Shown here in pieces: positions 3,001 to 46,079 of a stretch of DNA of 51,521 nt. This stretch comes from Bryobacteraceae bacterium. Its GTDB lineage: Bacteria; Acidobacteriota; Terriglobia; Bryobacterales; Bryobacteraceae. The stretch spans positions 1 through 51,521 of the forward strand of contig JBAUUG010000446.1 in the NCBI GenBank assembly GCA_049582585.1, read 5' to 3'. Numbering within the stretch: position 1 is the stretch's first letter; the number at the start of each line of letters is the position of its first letter. Position numbers and translations under genes: made by a program. Below the pieces are notes generated by a model. The model did no database searches and was not told the origin of the DNA. It saw only the letters and a list, made by a program, of their open reading frames with translations.

Positions 3001-4699
3001 CAACGGATCGATGTATACCGTCTCGACTACTTCGCCGCAGACCTCGGCGGGTGTACAGAATACGTTCACGAGCTGGTCGGACGGGGGAGCAATGTCGCAC
3101 TCGATTCTTATTTCCAGCACGACCGGCACAGCCAGCTATAGCGCAAGCTTCAGCACTGCGTATCAGCTGACCACGGCGGTGTCACCCAGCAACTCGGGAA
3201 CCGTGACTCCCACTTCGGGGAATTACTATGCTCCGGGGACGCCGATCGGCCTGACGGCTGCGGCGAGCCACGGGTATGGGTTCTCAAACTGGACGTCGAC
3301 CGCGAATGGGATCCTGGCCAATGCGAACAGCGCGACCTCTGCGACCGTGACGCTAAGCGGTCCCGCGACGGTAACTGCTAACTTCGCAGCCCTTTCGAAC
3401 ACGCCGTTCGTGATCTCGGCGACTCCGAACAACGCGACCGGTTCTTCTCCCCCGTTTGCGCTGACCTACTCCGACAGCAGCGGAACAGCTGCTCTTCGCT
3501 ATTTGATCGTGAACTTCAATACGACGAGCTCCTATGCACAGGGCTGTGTCGTCTACTACAACCAGGACAACAACAATCTGTTCCTGGAAAACGACGCCGG
3601 AAACGCGGTGCAAGGGCCGATCCAACCCGGCTCCGGAATGCTCAAGAATAGCCAGTGCACGATTAGCGGGGCAGGCACTTCGACCGCCATCGCGGGCAAC
3701 AATCTCACGCTGAATCTGGCGGTCACGGCGACCAGCAGTTTCACGGGCGTAAAGAACATTTATATGTTGGCGACGGACAACAACGGCAAGGAAAGCGGTT
3801 GGGTGAACGCGGGGACCTGGACGCCCGGAGCCGCCTCCGCTCCCTCGATAGTCCCGCTATCGCCGAATACTTACAGCGGCTCCCCGCAAACTTTTGCGCT
3901 GACGTATTCCGACACCGGCGGTCCTCCCGACCTTCACTATGTGATCGTCAACTTCAATACGAGCACGGCCTCCTCTCAGGGCTGCGTCGTCTACTACAAC
4001 CAGGACAACAATAATCTCTCGCTTCTGAACAACGCCGGGAGCGGCATTCAAGGGACTATCCAGCCCGGATCGGGCTCGGTATCGAACAGTCAATGCACCA
4101 TCACCGGGAGCGGCACAACTGTCGTCCCCTCGGGCAACAACCTCACCCTGAACCTGGAGGTAACCGCGAGCAGCAGTTTCACAGGAACGCAGAATATCTA
4201 CATGCTGGCGACCGACAATGACGGGAAGGAAACCGGCTGGCAAAATGAGGGTACTTGGACGCCCGCCGGCGCCTCCATTCCCTCGGTCGTTTCGGCATCG
4301 CAGAGCGGTGTTACCGGTTCGCCCGAAACCTTCGCGCTGACCTATTCCGATACAGGCGGCTCGACAGCTCTTCATTATCTGGTCGTGAACTTTAATACGA
4401 GCACGGCTTATGCGAGCGCCTGCGTCGTTTACTATAACCAGGACAATAACAATCTCTTCCTGGAGGACGATGCGGGTACCGGGCTGGAAGGTCCGATTCA
4501 GCCCGGTTCAGGCACGCTGTCGAATACTCAGTGCATGATTGACGGCACTAACACTACGGTCGTGCCTTCGGGCGACCAATTAACGCTGAACCTGGCGGTG
4601 ACGGGCTATTTAACGGGCACAAAGAACATTTATATGCTGGCCACCGACAACGACAGCAAAGAGAGCGGTTGGCAAAACGAGGGGACCTGGACGCCTTAA
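65..4699 (+). CDS. Very large secreted/cell-surface protein (1544 aa): signal peptide, Ig-like domains, three proprotein-convertase P-domain-like modules, DUF11-like repeat domain, three tandem 146-aa C-terminal modules
   Basis: Single uninterrupted ORF. Hydrophobic N-terminus MRDQILLSTALFFLAAGSVFGSC. Ig-like repeats (TEGTSVTLTATVNS..GTVTFTDNG; TVGESVTFTATVTSGG..GTVTFKENG). P-domain-like motifs GTWTLYVW..IASWTVTI, GQWSLYAY..IGGYCLNI, GYWAFYLY..INNWCLNF. PVLTLTKSHSG..TITVANPSG resembles a DUF11 repeat. T/S/G/N-rich composition. Confidence 0.8.
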   Translation: MRDQILLSTALFFLAAGSVFGSCTGSSPYACTGGSLSINATSQNGYLASNAQTVSGLAGSISKVTVTMTNWNDNGSYPGDTDREMMLVFQPTGCGNNNCLQTFQFLGGFGSFDSLSSYTVTFDDSATKYAPDAYEGVNAGDEPPVNPGLYKPTVNEGQTYCSQEGGQAAFGSPAPSSAPCATDNQSDTANGNSDGHSTFASQFSGNPNGTWTLYVWTNGNGEDSAAGIASWTVTITTQASAASTTTSLSSNQPNNETTEGTSVTLTATVNSNSTVNEGTVTFTDNGNNLSCSGGNPAAVSSGTATCVTSFSSEGNHPLEAAYSGGTDFGASHGTLNFFADHPTTNPNPGQYCNTGTITVNTANQPGTTPYPQHITIPSTNGTLSDVSLTLSNITTDSNGAISDYNFLLVDPNGNKFIPLAGAGGSAAASGVTLALSDYGSATVPNPQNTAAPSGTYLPTDDNSGLSFASSPNGPPAGPYQLPQNQGGATFDTTFGGSNPSGQWSLYAYDTSGQQTGSIGGYCLNITTSNAAATVTTVTSSPNMEATVGESVTFTATVTSGGNPISDGTVTFKENGTVLSGPTAVNGSGQATFQTSSLSEGIHTITANYSGVSGTFNVSSGSVTIEIDTATTNPSSGVYCNPGGINISGSNGGQNIPASPYPSRVNVTNLAGTVNTVGISLNNFSDAEPDGSVMLLEGPTSTNIVFWDGVGGDSGFSSLNLTLADSAGSGNPVPAPPSNNGTYYPTADADGHPAAVFPSPAPTSLSFAPSEGLQTFTNAFQNINGNGYWAFYLYNRFGGQAVSINNWCLNFVVNPPVLTLTKSHSGSFTQGDTSDTYTITVANPSGPGSTGGTLTLTDTLPTGMSGVSMGETAHTGGGTGSDWNCTGSTATCTRTTPMPSGESDTITLTVSVGYNTATGANAVTNSVQVSGGGISATQTATDQTTINPGPVQVTFSTSPAGLSYTVGSTTYTSQQMLTLTNGSMYTVSTTSPQTSAGVQNTFTSWSDGGAMSHSILISSTTGTASYSASFSTAYQLTTAVSPSNSGTVTPTSGNYYAPGTPIGLTAAASHGYGFSNWTSTANGILANANSATSATVTLSGPATVTANFAALSNTPFVISATPNNATGSSPPFALTYSDSSGTAALRYLIVNFNTTSSYAQGCVVYYNQDNNNLFLENDAGNAVQGPIQPGSGMLKNSQCTISGAGTSTAIAGNNLTLNLAVTATSSFTGVKNIYMLATDNNGKESGWVNAGTWTPGAASAPSIVPLSPNTYSGSPQTFALTYSDTGGPPDLHYVIVNFNTSTASSQGCVVYYNQDNNNLSLLNNAGSGIQGTIQPGSGSVSNSQCTITGSGTTVVPSGNNLTLNLEVTASSSFTGTQNIYMLATDNDGKETGWQNEGTWTPAGASIPSVVSASQSGVTGSPETFALTYSDTGGSTALHYLVVNFNTSTAYASACVVYYNQDNNNLFLEDDAGTGLEGPIQPGSGTLSNTQCMIDGTNTTVVPSGDQLTLNLAVTGYLTGTKNIYMLATDNDSKESGWQNEGTWTP
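3389..4696 (+). repeat. Three tandem in-frame coding repeats (438, 438 and 432 bp; about 146 aa each) at the C-terminus of the surface protein
   Basis: The anchor F-A-L-T-Y-S-D recurs at nt 3455, 3893 and 4331 (period 438). Each unit ends G-T-W-T-P at 3826, 4264 and 4696. Shared blocks: VNFNT, CVVYYNQDNNNL, IQPGSG, NNLTLNL, NIYMLATDN.GKE.GW. Confidence 0.9.
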
Positions 4700-41278: not shown

Positions 41279-42454
41279 TCAGTGGACCAGTTTCTGCAGC
41301 CGTTCCCCAGCGGCTTCGAGCGTCTCTGGCCTTTTCGCGAAGCAGAAGCGAATCAGGTGTGAGCCATCCGCGGGATCTGAGAAGAAGCTCGAGCCCGGGA
41401 CAGCGGCAATCCCAATCTCTTTCACGAGATGTCTGCAAAACGCGATATCGTCCGTGAAGCCGAAAGGCGAGATGTCGCACATGATGTAGTAGGCTCCCTT
41501 CGGAACATAACAGCGAAGCCCGACCTTCTCGAGCATGCCGACCAGGAGGTCTCGCTTGGTTTGGTAATTTCGCGCTAAGTCCGCGTAATAGCGGTCCGGC
41601 AGGTTCAGCGCGGTCACCCCTGCCTGTTGCAACGGAGCGGCTGCTCCCACCGTGAGAAAGTCGTGAACTTTACGTATGGAAGCGGTGAGATCGGGCGCGG
41701 CAATCACCCAGCCGACACGCCAGCCGGTTACTGAGTAGGTCTTGCTGAGACTGTTCACAAGAACACAGCGATCGCGCATGCCCGGGAGCGTAATCGGCGG
41801 GATGTGCCGCTCGCCGTCGAAAATGATGTGCTCATAGATCTCGTCCGTAATCAACAGGCAATCGTACTCTTCGCAGAGATTAGTGACGAGCGTAAGCTCA
41901 CTTGCCGAGAAAACCCGGCCGGTTGGATTATTCGGCGAATTTAGTATTACGGCGCGGGTTCGTTTGGTAAAAGCGGCGCGAAGCTCGTCGGGATCAAAGG
42001 TCCAATCAGGCGGCCGGAGGGTGACGAAGCGGCAGACGGCTCCGCTGAGCTGGGAATCGGGCCAGTAATTTTCGTAAAAAGGCTCAAAAAGCACGACTTC
42101 GTCGCCGGGATTGAGCAGAGCAAGCAGCGTGGCGATCATGCCCTCCGTCGCGCCGCAGCAGACAGTCAGTTCACGCTCTGAGTCGATCTCGAGCTGATAG
42201 AAATGCCGATAATAATGGCAGATGGCATCGCGGAAAGGTTTAGCGCCCCAGGTTATCGAATATTGATTGACATCGTCCCCGATAGCGTTTTGAGCAGCCG
42301 TTTTGACTTCAGCGGGGGCCGCGAAATCGGGAAATCCCTGGGCGAGATTGACGGCGCCATGCTGGATCGCGAGACGCGTCATGTCGCGGATTACGGATTC
42401 CTTGAACTCGGCTACCCGGGCGCTCTCAAACCGGCGGGCGAGGATGCTTCCCAT
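41279..42454 (-). CDS. Pyridoxal-phosphate-dependent aminotransferase, class I/II (YbdL/kynurenine-oxoglutarate type)
   Basis: Start at MGSILARRF. VNLAQGFPDF, NQYSITWG, NPGDEVVLFEPFYENY, ILNSPNNPTGRVF, SLSKTYSVTGWRVGW (PLP lysine) and IRFCFAK. Confidence 0.85.
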   Translation of the reverse strand: MGSILARRFESARVAEFKESVIRDMTRLAIQHGAVNLAQGFPDFAAPAEVKTAAQNAIGDDVNQYSITWGAKPFRDAICHYYRHFYQLEIDSERELTVCCGATEGMIATLLALLNPGDEVVLFEPFYENYWPDSQLSGAVCRFVTLRPPDWTFDPDELRAAFTKRTRAVILNSPNNPTGRVFSASELTLVTNLCEEYDCLLITDEIYEHIIFDGERHIPPITLPGMRDRCVLVNSLSKTYSVTGWRVGWVIAAPDLTASIRKVHDFLTVGAAAPLQQAGVTALNLPDRYYADLARNYQTKRDLLVGMLEKVGLRCYVPKGAYYIMCDISPFGFTDDIAFCRHLVKEIGIAAVPGSSFFSDPADGSHLIRFCFAKRPETLEAAGERLQKLVH

Positions 42455-42544
42455 GCTGCCATGATTACATCGAGGATTCGCTGCTTCTCTCTCGAATCGA
42501 AGCACAGCGAGGCACCTACGAACCGAAATGACTGGCTGCTCGCG

Positions 42545-42552
42545 CAACGCTT
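42545..42552. repeat. Target-site duplication, left copy (CAACGCTT)
   Basis: The identical octamer recurs directly outside the right IR at 44953-44960. Confidence 0.85.
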
Positions 42553-42570
42553 GGTAGTGGCTCAGTTTGA
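42553..42570 (+). repeat. Left terminal inverted repeat GGTAGTGGCTCAGTTTGA
   Basis: Exact reverse complement of 44935-44952. 20 of 22 positions match if extended to 42574 / 44931. Confidence 0.9.
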
Positions 42571-42571
42571 G

Positions 42572-42940
42572 TTAGCGGATATCAAATAGAAAGGCTAATC
42601 CGAGTTCGATTCCGCCCATTGCCGTGTCGGTCATTTTGCCCATTTTAGGTTGTTCCAATCTGCTCGGATCTAAGACCCGTATGTGATCAGTAAGGGCCAC
42701 GCTGTTGCTCATTGGCCGCGAGCAAGACACATCCTTGATCATGTGTGTCATTGGGATAAGTATTCTGTAAGCGCTCGCCTTGTGGACCTTAGTGGTGAGT
42801 GGAACACCGACAACGTTGAACCCCAGTTTATTAATCGCGTCCCTAGAAACGATCACATAAGGACGGCTTTTCTTTTGCTCGGACCCTTGTATGTCGAGAT
42901 CTTTAGCGAATACCCAAAAGATCTCACCGTACTTAAGCAT
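42572..42940 (-). CDS. PemK/MazF-family endoribonuclease toxin
   Basis: GEIFWVFAKDLDIQGSEQKKSRPYVIVSRDAIN...VVGVPLTTK.....YRILIP....SVALTDHIRVLDPSRL matches the GdI..v.....GsEq...RP.lVvS / vvPlTs / Qir.iD..RL pattern. The ATG at 42940 overlaps the upstream stop (ATGCTTAA). Confidence 0.85.
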   Translation of the reverse strand: MLKYGEIFWVFAKDLDIQGSEQKKSRPYVIVSRDAINKLGFNVVGVPLTTKVHKASAYRILIPMTHMIKDVSCSRPMSNSVALTDHIRVLDPSRLEQPKMGKMTDTAMGGIELGLAFLFDIR

Positions 42941-43718
42941 CAAGCAGTGTTGCAGTGTCCATGTCTTTCATGGATGAATCGAGCAGTTCTTGGTCTTCCT
43001 CGTCCCATTCAAACGGCTGGATAGTGACTTCTTCTTGGGGAGATCTAAAATTAAGCCCCTGCCGAGCATACCCATACGCATTCACTGCGGCTCTCAGGCC
43101 GTCAATGATTTCGGGCAGCACTTGAAGTTGAATTGATTTATCATGCCGAATGCCTACTAACAGACAATCGAGATGAAACTGCGCCCATGTTGCATTAACG
43201 GCGAACTTGGTGGCTATCTCTTGGTCTTGAGATCTTAGATCTGGGGCAACATTGCCAGAAGCCGCTATCGTTGCGATTATTCTGCTTGTGCGCCGAAGCG
43301 TCCAAACAGTGAACATTGCTTGGTCCTTAGCAGCCGATCCGAATCGGGCTAGACCATGTTCTCGGAATTCTGCTTCAAGTTCACAAAAACATTCACGCAA
43401 AACAGTCTCAATAACTGGCCCCGCAACCATCCTTTGGATCAAGCGTGCGAAAGACGTTACCGCAATCGCATACTGCTCAAAGACTACACTTCTCACTGCG
43501 GTGAAATCCTTCTGGTTTTGTGCTGCGATAGCCCGCAGTAGCAGTCCATCAACGAACGAGCTTATTCCCTTGAGGATCTCCTCTGCTGAGGGAGACAACT
43601 CCCCCTTCGAGCGGCGCTGCGAAGGAAGGCCCACTAAGGCTAGAAGGTCATCTAATCCCGGAGGTTTTAAGCTTAGAACCCCGATATCTTGCTCGGGCAA
43701 AACAATAGCTTCGTTCAT
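42933..43718 (-). CDS. Hypothetical 261-aa protein with an acidic C-terminal tail, in the antitoxin position of the MazF operon
   Basis: Uninterrupted ORF translationally coupled to the toxin gene. Mostly helical-looking sequence. C-terminus FEWDEEDQELLDSSMKDMD. No AbrB/RHH/HTH motif recognised. Confidence 0.65.
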   Translation of the reverse strand: MNEAIVLPEQDIGVLSLKPPGLDDLLALVGLPSQRRSKGELSPSAEEILKGISSFVDGLLLRAIAAQNQKDFTAVRSVVFEQYAIAVTSFARLIQRMVAGPVIETVLRECFCELEAEFREHGLARFGSAAKDQAMFTVWTLRRTSRIIATIAASGNVAPDLRSQDQEIATKFAVNATWAQFHLDCLLVGIRHDKSIQLQVLPEIIDGLRAAVNAYGYARQGLNFRSPQEEVTIQPFEWDEEDQELLDSSMKDMDTATLLDA

Positions 43719-43724
43719 GGTAGT

Positions 43725-43913
43725 TTAAGGACGCTTCCATCTTGCGCGATTTGCCTTGAGCGCTATTGCGCGTCGCTCACCTGCATCCAGTTTTTGGGCA
43801 CGCACGGTTCCACCGATTTTGCCACCTGCGCTTGCAGCTTCTTTTCGGCGATTGGGCTGCTTTTCTTCAGTGAGTTCTTTAACGATGCGAAAAGCATTTG
43901 TGTTTAGATCCAA
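43725..43913 (-). CDS. Small basic protein (62 aa), first gene of the cargo operon
   Basis: TTG start with AAGG upstream. C-terminal GGKIGGTVRAQKLDAGERRAIALKANRARW resembles a G-G-K..RA.KL...R..IA.KAA.ARW motif I recall in short proteins next to toxin genes. Its stop lies 6 nt before the next start. Confidence 0.45.
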   Translation of the reverse strand: MDLNTNAFRIVKELTEEKQPNRRKEAASAGGKIGGTVRAQKLDAGERRAIALKANRARWKRP

Positions 43914-44091
43914 CTACATACCTTGCCTTTCGAGGACCTCTGACGATATTCATTTATACCAAGTAGGACGATCATATCCTTGATGTCGTTAGTTAAACAA
44001 GGACTACTTCTCACTTTTCTCTCAGATTGTCAAGGGTTCTAGTACCCTTCTATTTGAACAAAATGCTTGACGAAGCAAGTACTCAAGCATA

Positions 44092-44943
44092 ATGTTTAGT
44101 ATGAACCGGTTGAGCATCAAAGATCGCGTGGGGGTGGTTCGCTGTCTAGTTGATGGATGCTCAATGCGGGCGGCTTCGCGTATTACCGGAATAGCTCGAA
44201 ATACCATTGACAAGCTTCTTATCGAACTGGGGACAGCCTGCTCTGAGTATCAGGATCGCACCCTCCGCAATCTGGCATGTAAACGAATTCAGGTAGATGA
44301 GTGCTGGGCCTTCTGTTATTGCAAGCAAAAGACTGTGACTCCCGAAATTGCGGAGCGTCAGACGGCGGCTGGTGACGCATGGACCTGGGCGGCGATTGAT
44401 GCTGATACCAAACTCATTCCCTGCTGGATTATCGGTCAACGAGATGGCGTCACTGCTCGGATGTTTGTTAATGATCTTGCTTCACGTCTTGCGGATCGGG
44501 TGCAACTTACCAGCGATGGCCTAAGGGTTTACCTGGCAGCCGTAGAGCGCGCGTTCAGGGGCGACGTTGATTATGCCACCCTCGTAAAGATCTACGGCAG
44601 CGACCCCGAAGGCCAGAGGCGGTACAGCCCAGGGGAGTGCATCGGATGCGAGCGGCAACCCATCACCGGAGATCCCGACCCGCGATACATCAGCACGAGT
44701 TTTATCGAACGCGCCAATTTAACCATGCGAATGAATATGCGGCGATTCACGAGGCTGACGAACGCCTTCTCGAAGAAAATCGAGAACCACGCCGCCGCCG
44801 TTTCATTGCACATGATGCACTACAATTTTGTGCGTGTCCACCAGACGCTCAGAACCACGCCTGCCATGGCCGCTGGCGTGACTAATCGGCTCTGGGAGAT
44901 CGAAGACATCGTGGCGCTCTTGGATCATGAGAATTCAAACTGA
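44092..44943 (+). CDS. IS1-family DDE transposase (single ORF, N-terminal HTH)
   Basis: HTH CSMRAASRITGIARNTIDKLL. VDECWAF, WAAIDADTKLI, LTSDGLRVY, and FIERANLTMRMNMRRFTRLTNAFSKKIENHAAAVSLHMMHYNF, which parallels E. coli IS1 InsB [41 protein letters not shown]. Start at 44092 or 44101. Confidence 0.85.
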   Translation: MFSMNRLSIKDRVGVVRCLVDGCSMRAASRITGIARNTIDKLLIELGTACSEYQDRTLRNLACKRIQVDECWAFCYCKQKTVTPEIAERQTAAGDAWTWAAIDADTKLIPCWIIGQRDGVTARMFVNDLASRLADRVQLTSDGLRVYLAAVERAFRGDVDYATLVKIYGSDPEGQRRYSPGECIGCERQPITGDPDPRYISTSFIERANLTMRMNMRRFTRLTNAFSKKIENHAAAVSLHMMHYNFVRVHQTLRTTPAMAAGVTNRLWEIEDIVALLDHENSN

Positions 44944-44952
44944 GCCACTACC
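44935..44952 (-). repeat. Right terminal inverted repeat (reverse complement reads GGTAGTGGCTCAGTTTGA)
   Basis: + strand TCAAACTGAGCCACTACC. It contains the transposase stop codon (44941-44943). Confidence 0.9.
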
Positions 44953-44960
44953 CAACGCTT
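44953..44960. repeat. Target-site duplication, right copy (CAACGCTT)
   Basis: Identical to 42545-42552. Confidence 0.85.
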
Positions 44961-45023
44961 AGAAATGCATTCTGGTATGGTACGCTTTCTGGCCCTTAGC
45001 GCCAGGGCCGCGATTGCTTCGAT

Positions 45024-46079
45024 ATGGAGCGGATCGAAAAAACCGTTTTTCTCAGCTATCGCCGCACCAACATTCCTTGGGCGCTTGCTATTTTCCAGAA
45101 CCTGAGACAGCACGGCTATGACGTATTTTTTGATTACAACGGTATGGCCAGTGGCGATTTCGAGCGCGTCATCCTTGGAAACATACCGGCGCGGGCACAT
45201 TTTCTCGTTCTGCTAACCCCTTCGGCGCTTGAACGTTGCAATGAGCCGGCAGATTGGTTGCGCCGCGAGATTGAGACTGCTTTGGCTACCCAGCGCAATA
45301 TCGTGCCGTTGATGCTGGAAGGGTTTGAATTCGGGGCAGCTAAAATCGCCAATCAGCTAACAGGTACGCTTGCTGCGCTCAAGCACTACGACGGAGTACG
45401 CATTCCGCCGGACTATTTCGAAGAGGCAATGGATCGCTTGCGAGTCCGGTATTTAAATATTCCATTGATTGCGGTCCTGCACCCCGCATCCTTTTCTGCA
45501 CAAGAAGCCGCTGCACAAGAGAAGGCGGCGGCTGACGCGGCTCCCGCAGTTCAAGAGGAGGAGTTAACTGCCCAGCAATGGTTCGAGCGAGGATTTGCTG
45601 CGGTCGACCTTGATGAAAAATTGCGCTTCTACAACGAGGCGATCCGGCTGAAGCCGGACTATTCCGAGGCCTTCAACAACCGGGGCAATGCACGAAAGGC
45701 CAAAGGCGACCTCGAGGGAGCGATGAAGGATTACAACGAGACGATCCGGCTGAAGCCGGACTATTCAGAGGCCTTCAACAACCGAGGCGTTGCACGTTCT
45801 GACAAAGGCGACCTCGAGGGAGCCATGAAGGATTACAACGAGGCGATCCGGCTGAAGCCGGACTATTCAGAGGCCTTCAACAACCGGGGCAATGCACGTT
45901 ATACCAAAGGCGACCTCGAGGGAGCGATCAAGGATTACGGCGAGGCGATCCGGCTGAAGCCGGACTATGCCCTTGCCTTCAACAACCGGGGCATTGCACG
46001 AAACGCCAAAGGTGACGTCAAGGGAGCAGACGAGGATTTAAGGCAAGCGGAGCGCCTCAAAGCTGCCGCTCCGGCATAA
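45024..46079 (+). CDS. TIR-domain protein fused to TPR repeats
   Basis: N-terminus VFLSYRRTNIPWALAIFQNLRQHGYDVFFDYNGMASGDFERVI......FLVLLTPSALERCNEPADWLRREIETA is a bacterial TIR_2-type pattern with a conserved Glu. The C-terminus has four or more 34-aa TPRs (AIRLKPDYSEAFNNRGNARKAKGDLEGAMKDYNE). Confidence 0.85.
   Translation: MERIEKTVFLSYRRTNIPWALAIFQNLRQHGYDVFFDYNGMASGDFERVILGNIPARAHFLVLLTPSALERCNEPADWLRREIETALATQRNIVPLMLEGFEFGAAKIANQLTGTLAALKHYDGVRIPPDYFEEAMDRLRVRYLNIPLIAVLHPASFSAQEAAAQEKAAADAAPAVQEEELTAQQWFERGFAAVDLDEKLRFYNEAIRLKPDYSEAFNNRGNARKAKGDLEGAMKDYNETIRLKPDYSEAFNNRGVARSDKGDLEGAMKDYNEAIRLKPDYSEAFNNRGNARYTKGDLEGAIKDYGEAIRLKPDYALAFNNRGIARNAKGDVKGADEDLRQAERLKAAAPA
45639..46046 (+). 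repeat. Four tandem 102-bp coding repeats (TPR units), the first three nearly identical at nucleotide level
   Basis: Units start at 45639, 45741, 45843 and 45945 (GCGATCCGGCTGAAGCCGGACTAT...). Units 1-3 differ at only a few positions; unit 4 is more diverged. Confidence 0.9.

Follow-up and report, generated by a model that had tools for sequence, protein, structure and literature searches.

The DNA analyzed here, a stretch of 51,521 nucleotides (nt) from a Bryobacteraceae bacterium (contig JBAUUG010000446.1; hereafter the window), contains at positions 42553–44952 what is probably a complete and recently inserted transporter insertion sequence (tIS) of the IS1 family, in which a small basic backbone protein is combined with a toxin–antitoxin (TA) cassette, composed of a 261-amino acid (aa) protein and a MazF/PemK toxin, as cargo. 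The boundaries of the element, its signatures of mobility, the linkage of its genes, and their division into two co-evolving blocks were computed directly. A sequence-only reading of the same DNA had proposed a tripartite MazF system made up of a 62-aa basic protein, the 261-aa protein, and the toxin. One part of that proposal stood, namely a non-canonical 261-aa partner that is linked to and co-evolves with this clade of MazF, while the third component did not, as the 62-aa protein tracks the transposase and is gone from 17 of the 40 loci that have the pair. The inverted repeats, the target-site duplication, and the neighboring transposase gene were the context missed by that reading, and the description that suits the unit best is an insertion sequence (IS) carrying a two-gene TA cassette as cargo.

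The element is bounded by inverted repeats of 21 nt, GGTAGTGGCTCAGTTTGA(G/A)TT, which match at 20 of 21 positions, and it lies between the two copies of its target-site duplication (Table 1). The 18-nt core of the repeats has only two exact matches in the window and also marks the ends of the element at more than 20 further loci, and the GC content of the element is 50.2% versus 56.7% for the window. Target-site duplications of 8–9 bp are typical of IS1. Copies of this element are present in many genomes of Acidobacteriota. Among 20 complete homologous elements, perfect 8-bp flanking duplications were found for 15, which represent 12 distinct sites rather than 15, because loci L032, L033, and L045 share one site in one metagenome-assembled genome (MAG). 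These three loci (MAG CAWHVW01) share more than 6 kb at 95–98% identity, and all lie at contig ends; they represent either a repeat of larger extent or strains binned together, and do not count as separate transposition events.

The transposase is a single open reading frame (ORF) with a partial match to the Pfam family DDE_Tnp_IS1 (PF03400, 28.3 bits against a cut-off of 24.1). Its relatives of 50–55% identity, in Mesorhizobium, Hoeflea, and Acidiphilium plasmids, are annotated as “IS1 family transposase,” and the residues D95, D142, E206, and R213 are invariant across 22 homologues. The CxxC zinc-finger motif is absent from the 283-aa ORF, and within the IS1 family only the single-ORF branch accommodates this transposase. 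The same inverted-repeat core flanks related IS1-family transposase genes on plasmids of Mesorhizobium loti and Acidiphilium multivorum, which points to a widespread IS lineage with passenger genes.

The other three genes run divergently from the transposase and are tightly packed, as had been read from the sequence and as their coordinates on the minus strand agree. The TAA of the 62-aa ORF, which includes GGKIGGTVRAQKL...ERRAIALKANRARW, is separated by a 6-nt gap from the ATG of the 261-aa ORF, and the stop (TAA) of the latter overlaps the toxin ATG by 8 nt in ATGCTTAA (42933–42940). The assignment of the last gene to the PemK/MazF toxins was borne out by a match to the Pfam family PemK_toxin (PF02452, E = 1.2e-17, 64.5 bits against a cut-off of 23.1, profile positions 2–106 of 109) and by matches to MazF chains of solved structure in the PDB (4of1/4mzm, E = 1.5e-6 to about 2e-6). 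The GSEQ..RP and T-T-K segments of the toxin align with the active-site region of Staphylococcus aureus MazF; in the alignment to the solved MazF, QGSEQkkSRPyVIv pairs with QGSEQGGVRPVVII and vPLTTKvhKA with AAITGRINKA. The roles of the catalytic Arg and Thr in MazF are known from published work on the Bacillus subtilis and S. aureus proteins. Judged by its sequence, the toxin is an ordinary member of the MazF/PemK family and, by family, a predicted endoribonuclease; its catalytic region is intact, and neutralization would therefore be needed.

For the analysis of linkage, 45 loci were fetched from genomes with the 261-aa family as query, and 80 loci were fetched from metagenomes with the 62-aa small protein as query. 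In 40 of 44 genome loci, the gene immediately following the 261-aa homologue is mazF, so that the co-occurrence of the two genes, which had been named as a check of the tripartite proposal, was found. MazF likewise follows in all 16 of the small-protein-seeded metagenome loci that have a 261-aa gene and enough downstream sequence. Four genome loci have no MazF match. Three of these have an explanation: one stops at the end of its contig, in one the PemK ORF is truncated, and in one a PemK-like ORF has diverged, the last two having been recognized only by eye. This arrangement of the 261-aa gene and mazF is far beyond chance. Of the 40 genome loci with enough flank, 23 have the same transposase upstream, in divergent orientation. 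In the other 17, the pair occurs without the transposase, and none of these has an intact small ORF, with decayed remnants of it at two (L002 and L015). The 261-aa protein and MazF are a self-sufficient two-gene unit.

Pairwise protein identities were compared across 16 nonredundant complete elements. The identities of the 261-aa protein are strongly correlated with those of MazF (r = 0.86), and those of the transposase with those of the small protein (r = 0.71), while the correlations across the two blocks are lower, at r = 0.31 for the transposase and r = 0.37 for the small protein, each with the 261-aa protein. The transposase of the window is 73% identical to those of L012, L022, L029, and L032, whose 261-aa proteins are only 32–40% identical to that of the window, and the closest relatives of the window's 261-aa protein (57–64%) are at L001 and L002, both without a complete IS. 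From these correlations and this split, it follows that the backbone (transposase and small protein) and the cassette (261-aa protein and MazF) have separate histories.

The cargo slot was taken to run from the small gene to the distal inverted repeat, and its content was counted in 53 nonredundant elements. The 261-aa/MazF cassette occupies it in 32 elements, a count biased upward by the way in which the loci were fetched. Non-MazF cargo was found in 21 of the 53: a family of ~146 aa with varying partners in 15 elements, a pair of about 183 aa and about 184 aa in five, and another pair in one. Different types of cargo are present within each transposase clade. The partner of the ~146-aa family is HicA in four elements (Pfam PF07927, E = 4.8e-7), and several unannotated proteins of 80–100 aa also stand beside this family; the sister cassettes are located at L056–L060, L075, and L091–L140. 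In the alternative pair, a 183-aa helical protein is followed by a 184-aa protein with a RelE-like “KIWKWD...RKGWRLY” motif and a Cys-rich C-terminus. PDB profile searches with two of the alternative cargo families (C2 and C4) gave nothing significant, and Pfam confirmed HicA alone; the labels “HicB-like” and “RelE-like” therefore stay impressions. A relationship between the 261-aa family and the 183-aa first gene of the alternative cassette was rejected (hhalign probability 0.2%).

Copies of the IS lineage with the inverted-repeat core and the small-protein motif were also located on a plasmid of M. loti (CP050295, L141, 1296–4665) and on a plasmid of A. multivorum (NZ_CP041717, L142, 1767–4400). 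Their passengers differ, being an HTH (helix-turn-helix)/ImmA-like 367-aa protein with a 159-aa protein in one, and a 68-aa protein with a 319-aa protein in the other, and immediately beyond the inverted repeat of the Acidiphilium copy lies a RES/Xre TA pair. Variants of the layout were seen at L098/L099, where about 2 kb is inserted between the transposase (1101–1931) and the small ORF (4001–4183), and at L100, where an inverted repeat at 1969 lies directly upstream of the small ORF (2200), with no transposase; the latter is possibly a non-autonomous derivative.

The small protein is an IS backbone protein and a hallmark of this lineage, not a dedicated third TA component, because it co-evolves with the transposase, precedes unrelated cassettes, and sits elsewhere in the alphaproteobacterial copies. 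It adjoins the divergent transposase in 55 of the 60 loci with enough upstream sequence, and the 261-aa/MazF pair is found in only 16 of the 37 small-protein loci with enough downstream sequence. In the alphaproteobacterial IS copies, a protein with the motif ...GG..GG.aRA..Lt.EqR.EIA.kAA.aRW, one of which is annotated as “histone H1,” is encoded at the opposite, far end of the element, as in the Mesorhizobium and Acidiphilium copies, and is not co-transcribed with the cargo. A profile search with the small protein returned more than 7,000 proteins of 60–90 aa with no annotation, far more than the 261-aa family has. The 62-aa protein has no Pfam, NCBIfam, or PADLOC match at E ≤ 1, a Pfam scan of 26 of its homologues gave isolated chance-level matches only, and a PDB profile search returned designed repeat proteins only. 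Its structural model has three helices, with a predicted local distance difference test (pLDDT) value of 76, and a Foldseek comparison of this model with the PDB gave 0 matches. As a best guess, it is a DNA-binding protein whose site is either the divergent control region or the ends of the IS.

The alternative of a true tripartite MazF system, in which the small protein would be the dedicated transcriptional regulator, like omega in omega-epsilon-zeta or PaaR in paaR-paaA-parE, the 261-aa protein the antitoxin, MazF the toxin, and the IS merely the carrier, is considered unlikely. The tight translational coupling of all three genes and the constant position of the small protein, whose gene invariably leads the cargo operon in the elements of Acidobacteriota, are what such a system would look like, and a separate regulator is plausible because the 261-aa protein has no recognizable DNA-binding domain. 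Against it, the pair is found without the small gene in the 17 loci described above, the small protein also precedes HicA and other unrelated cassettes, its identities follow those of the transposase and not those of the pair, and in Alphaproteobacteria its gene stands at the other end of the IS, apart from the cargo transcript.

The 261-aa partner itself falls outside the MazE/PemI families, because the DNA-binding domain that defines them was tested for and not found. The absence of a MazE/AbrB or ribbon-helix-helix (RHH) domain that had been noted by eye was upheld by Pfam and NCBIfam scans, by the AlphaFold2 model, and by the PDB fold search. No match to Pfam, NCBIfam, or PADLOC at E ≤ 1 was obtained for this protein, and none of the three operon proteins matched the PADLOC defense models at that threshold. 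A single-sequence search of the PDB gave only noise of E > 0.3, which included C-terminal regions of the TetR family, and Foldseek with the structural model gave best E-values of 0.43 (PDB) and 0.23 (BFVD), with template modeling (TM) scores of ≤0.3, so that no known antitoxin fold was recognized in the comparison that the sequence-only reading had suggested. The protein has 275 homologues at 90% clustering, and its family forms 337 clusters (50% identity) among 1.84 billion representatives, with a typical length of about 250 aa besides fragments; none of these 337 clusters has extra length hinting at a fused domain. As judged from these searches, the family is closed and has no relatives of known function.

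The AlphaFold2 model of the 261-aa protein (pLDDT 86; predicted TM score, pTM, 0.80) is all-helical and consists of a bundle of long helices (~43–225), a low-confidence linker, and a C-terminal helix (240–259), in agreement with the helical protein with an acidic tail that had been described from the sequence. The acidic C-terminal helix is the conserved WDEEDQELLDSSM segment, in which W238, D239, E241, D242, L245, S249, and M250 are invariant or nearly invariant, and the C-terminal tail has an isoelectric point (pI) of 4.1. The gene directly upstream of mazF and overlapping it encodes a protein with an acidic, conserved C-terminal helix. Most likely, the 261-aa protein neutralizes MazF as an antitoxin of a new kind, since a conserved acidic tail is the usual hallmark of the toxin-binding segment of type II antitoxins, and since the stand-alone loci offer no other gene that could restrain an apparently intact MazF. 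A subfamily of ~310 aa (P0011, P0014, P0020, P0030, P0031, P0045, and P0046; loci L046–L049) has an extra conserved C-terminal motif, FGTHIREGIEIVKDWIE, and its genes are separated from the downstream PemK genes by about 200 nt, with no overlap. The idea that these homologues are fusions with the small protein was rejected, as the added residues form a C-terminal extension.

Invariant polar residues were also found in the helical bundle of the 261-aa protein, namely R76, E113, D165, H182, C185, the Q180–C185 stretch (QFHLDC), R209, Y215, and R225. These residues, His and Cys included, suggest a ligand, metal, or catalytic site, which a passive scaffold would not need, and would allow for a further function in sensing or catalysis. 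It is conceivable, although improbable, that the 261-aa protein acts in a defense system as a sensor or switch controlling MazF as its effector, for example upon a trigger by phage, metal, or redox state, or that it is an enzyme, with neutralization achieved by another route. Such a role would suit a protein three times the size of MazE, with invariant His, Cys, Asp, Glu, and Arg in its bundle, from a closed family, and with a subfamily that carries the additional FGTHIREGIEIVKDWIE motif. It is opposed by the lack of a PADLOC match, by the stand-alone loci, which hold just two genes so that the partner must at least check MazF, and by the acidic, conserved, and flexibly tethered C-terminal helix, the usual signature of an antitoxin. 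That the module is a decaying or non-functional relic whose packing merely reflects inherited gene order is very improbable, for despite the TTG start of the small ORF in the window and the frameshifted or truncated genes at L002, L014, L036, L041, L043, and L045, all four ORFs of the window are full length and keep every family-invariant residue, the inverted repeats match nearly throughout, the duplication is perfect, and strong purifying conservation extends over hundreds to thousands of homologues.

If the element is a tIS with a TA cassette as cargo, the operon of small gene, antitoxin gene, and mazF would be transcribed from the shared divergent region in the direction opposite to the transposase, and MazF would cleave cellular RNA and thereby arrest growth. 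The 261-aa protein would neutralize MazF by placing its acidic C-terminal helix (~238–259) in the RNA-binding groove of the MazF dimer, like the C-terminal segment of MazE, and its helical bundle would serve dimerization and possibly sensing. The small protein would bind the divergent promoter with its palindrome, or the IS ends, and would regulate the transposase and the cargo operon, or transposition itself, for any cassette carried. Loss of the IS or of its replicon would free the toxin, by which the cassette would make the element hard to lose, and the cassette may add an abortive-infection benefit for the host.

Several points weigh against this interpretation. The transposase falls below the cut-off of the NCBIfam IS1 model (NF033558, E = 2.4e-11, 43.9 bits against 100) and does not have the two-ORF frameshift arrangement of classical IS1. 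In a scan for sigma-70 consensus promoters and terminators, the intergenic region of this copy showed no promoter, and no terminator was detected. The model of the small protein has a pTM of only 0.34 and no fold match, and with such low global confidence its DNA binding is argued only from charge and context. The small gene and the cassette are linked by translational coupling, with the 6-nt gap here and overlaps of 4–8 nt elsewhere, which makes a regulatory role in TA expression possible. With its 261 aa and the invariant polar residues of its bundle, the partner may do more than neutralize, and its binding and neutralization of MazF are inferred.

The positions of the features of the element are given in Table 1.

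Table 1. Features of the IS1-family element in the window and of its immediate boundaries.
Feature	Position	Strand	Description
Complete insertion sequence	42553–44952		2,400 bp; encloses all four genes
Target-site duplication, left copy	42545–42552		8 bp, CAACGCTT; direct reading of the sequence
Target-site duplication, right copy	44953–44960		8 bp, CAACGCTT; identical to left copy; AAGCGTTG on the other strand
Inverted repeat, toxin end	42553–42573		GGTAGTGGCTCAGTTTGAGTT; overlaps MazF stop codon
Inverted repeat, transposase end	44932–44952		Reverse complement of GGTAGTGGCTCAGTTTGAATT; overlaps transposase stop codon
MazF/PemK toxin gene	42572–42940	minus	122 aa from ATG; last in operon
261-aa ORF	42933–43718	minus	ATG start, TAA stop; pI 4.8; C-terminus ...FEWDEEDQELLDSSMKDMDTATLLDA
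62-aa basic ORF	43725–43913	minus	TTG start, TAA stop; pI 11.3
Divergent intergenic (promoter) region	43914–44091		39% GC
Palindrome	44057–44096		AACAwwATGCTTGAC-N12-GTCAAGCATwwTGTT; overlaps transposase start codon
IS1-family DDE transposase	44092–44943	plus	Single ORF, 283 aa; N-terminal HTH; divergent from operon

The palindrome of the divergent region is nearly invariant in an alignment of 24 elements, with three TTGAC repeats, and as RNA it folds with −16.9 kcal/mol (z = −3.2). It could be an operator or, alternatively, an RNA hairpin that sequesters the start codon of the transposase, and it has no sequence variation that would tell the two apart. A second ATG, 9 nt downstream of the transposase ATG, could start a leaderless mRNA. 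An Rfam search of 42300–45200 returned no known RNA.

The flanks of the IS are ordinary housekeeping genes of the chromosome. An aminotransferase gene adjoins one end and a TIR-TPR gene the other, and genes of the menaquinone pathway and of two-component systems lie farther out. The aminotransferase (class I/II) is encoded on the minus strand at 41279–42547, in a long TTG-started ORF in which the Pfam match begins only at residue 66. The end of the IS (42553) lies about 100 nt upstream of its likely true start (about 42454), and the insertion may alter the promoter of this gene. On the other side, 64 nt past the IS end, a TIR-domain protein with TPR repeats is encoded on the plus strand at 45024–46079. 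It matches TIR_2 (E = 1e-13) and, weakly, the models of Thoeris ThsB/ThcB4, and it is possibly a defense gene beside the insertion.

The type of MazF toxin, the existence of IS with passenger genes, and that of TA pairs in transposons are already known. What appear to be new are a helical MazF antitoxin candidate of ~250 aa, an IS1-family slot of interchangeable TA-like cassettes, and an abundant small basic accessory protein. Literature searches combining toxin–antitoxin, insertion sequence, passenger, and Acidobacteria returned no description of the element, of the helical antitoxin, or of the small protein, and none was found on “ISMhu11”; the IS itself may already be named. More tentatively, the element may belong to a large undescribed IS1 branch of Acidobacteriota and Alphaproteobacteria whose standard layout includes a slot for interchangeable TA cassettes, among them MazF with the helical antitoxin, HicA, and several unannotated pairs, and in which the small protein, acting at the palindrome, couples the expression of cassette and transposase, the result being an “addictive,” self-retaining IS.

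If the reading as a tIS with a TA cassette is true, the 261-aa family would be a new structural class of MazF antitoxin, of about 250 aa, all-helical and with no DNA-binding domain, and would add to the known modes of neutralization of a thoroughly studied toxin. TA cassettes would then be routine and exchangeable cargo of simple IS, while they have been documented so far mainly in the larger transposons of the Tn3 family, which would bear on the persistence of selfish elements and on the spread of TA and defense genes in soil bacteria. It would also give a functional handle on a very abundant unannotated family of small basic proteins. For annotation, the lesson is that transposon boundaries should be checked before multi-gene “systems” are called operonic systems.

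Among known TA systems, MazEF/PemIK (Kis-Kid) is the nearest, as it shares the PemK/MazF toxin with the GSEQ..RP and Thr active-site segments, a partner gene immediately upstream that overlaps the toxin start, and an acidic partner with an acidic C-terminal segment. It differs in the partner itself, which here has 261 aa, is all-helical, and has no AbrB/SpoVT or RHH domain, whereas MazE has about 80 aa; the partner has no likeness in sequence or fold to MazE, PemI, or any solved structure, and the pair is frequently the cargo of an insertion sequence. The three-component systems omega-epsilon-zeta, PaaR-PaaA-ParE, and the toxin–antitoxin–chaperone (TAC) systems with a SecB-like chaperone likewise have three co-transcribed genes, the first of which is small and probably DNA-binding. 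In the present element, however, the first gene follows the IS backbone whatever the cargo and is missing from the stand-alone pairs.

With IS1 and the tIS, the element shares a DDE transposase with the IS1 Pfam domain, an 8-bp duplication, a small size with passengers inside the repeats, and short terminal inverted repeats starting with GGnnnTG. GGnnnTG is the typical end of the IS1 family. Insertion sequences with passenger genes have been named transporter IS (PMC7986276), and classical IS1 is a 768-bp element with insA/insB, a −1 frameshift, and InsA, which has a zinc finger and an HTH, as repressor (PMC12428005). The present element, in contrast, has 2.4 kb, a single-ORF transposase without a zinc finger, a divergent operon, and a non-homologous small basic protein. 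The latter resembles InsA, the small repressor and transposition inhibitor of IS1, as a small basic IS-encoded protein that possibly binds the promoter or the ends, by functional analogy only, since it has no sequence similarity to InsA, no zinc finger, and no recognizable HTH, and it is encoded divergently and does not share the N-terminus of the transposase.

In transposons of the Tn3 family, TA pairs are embedded in the transposition module, with exchange of the TA types (Lima-Mendez et al., 2020; PMC7157771), and their proposed role is the stabilization or stable invasion of the element (PMC7157771). The present element is similar in having the TA genes beside the transposase gene and its promoter region, within the transposon ends, and in the swapping of TA types among its relatives. 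The two differ in the enzyme, an IS1-family DDE transposase of 283 aa here versus a TnpA of roughly 1,000 aa there, and in the resolvase and res site, which the present element does not have. Its toxins include MazF and HicA, MazF/PemK being unmentioned in the text of PMC7157771, and it carries, in addition, the conserved small basic protein.

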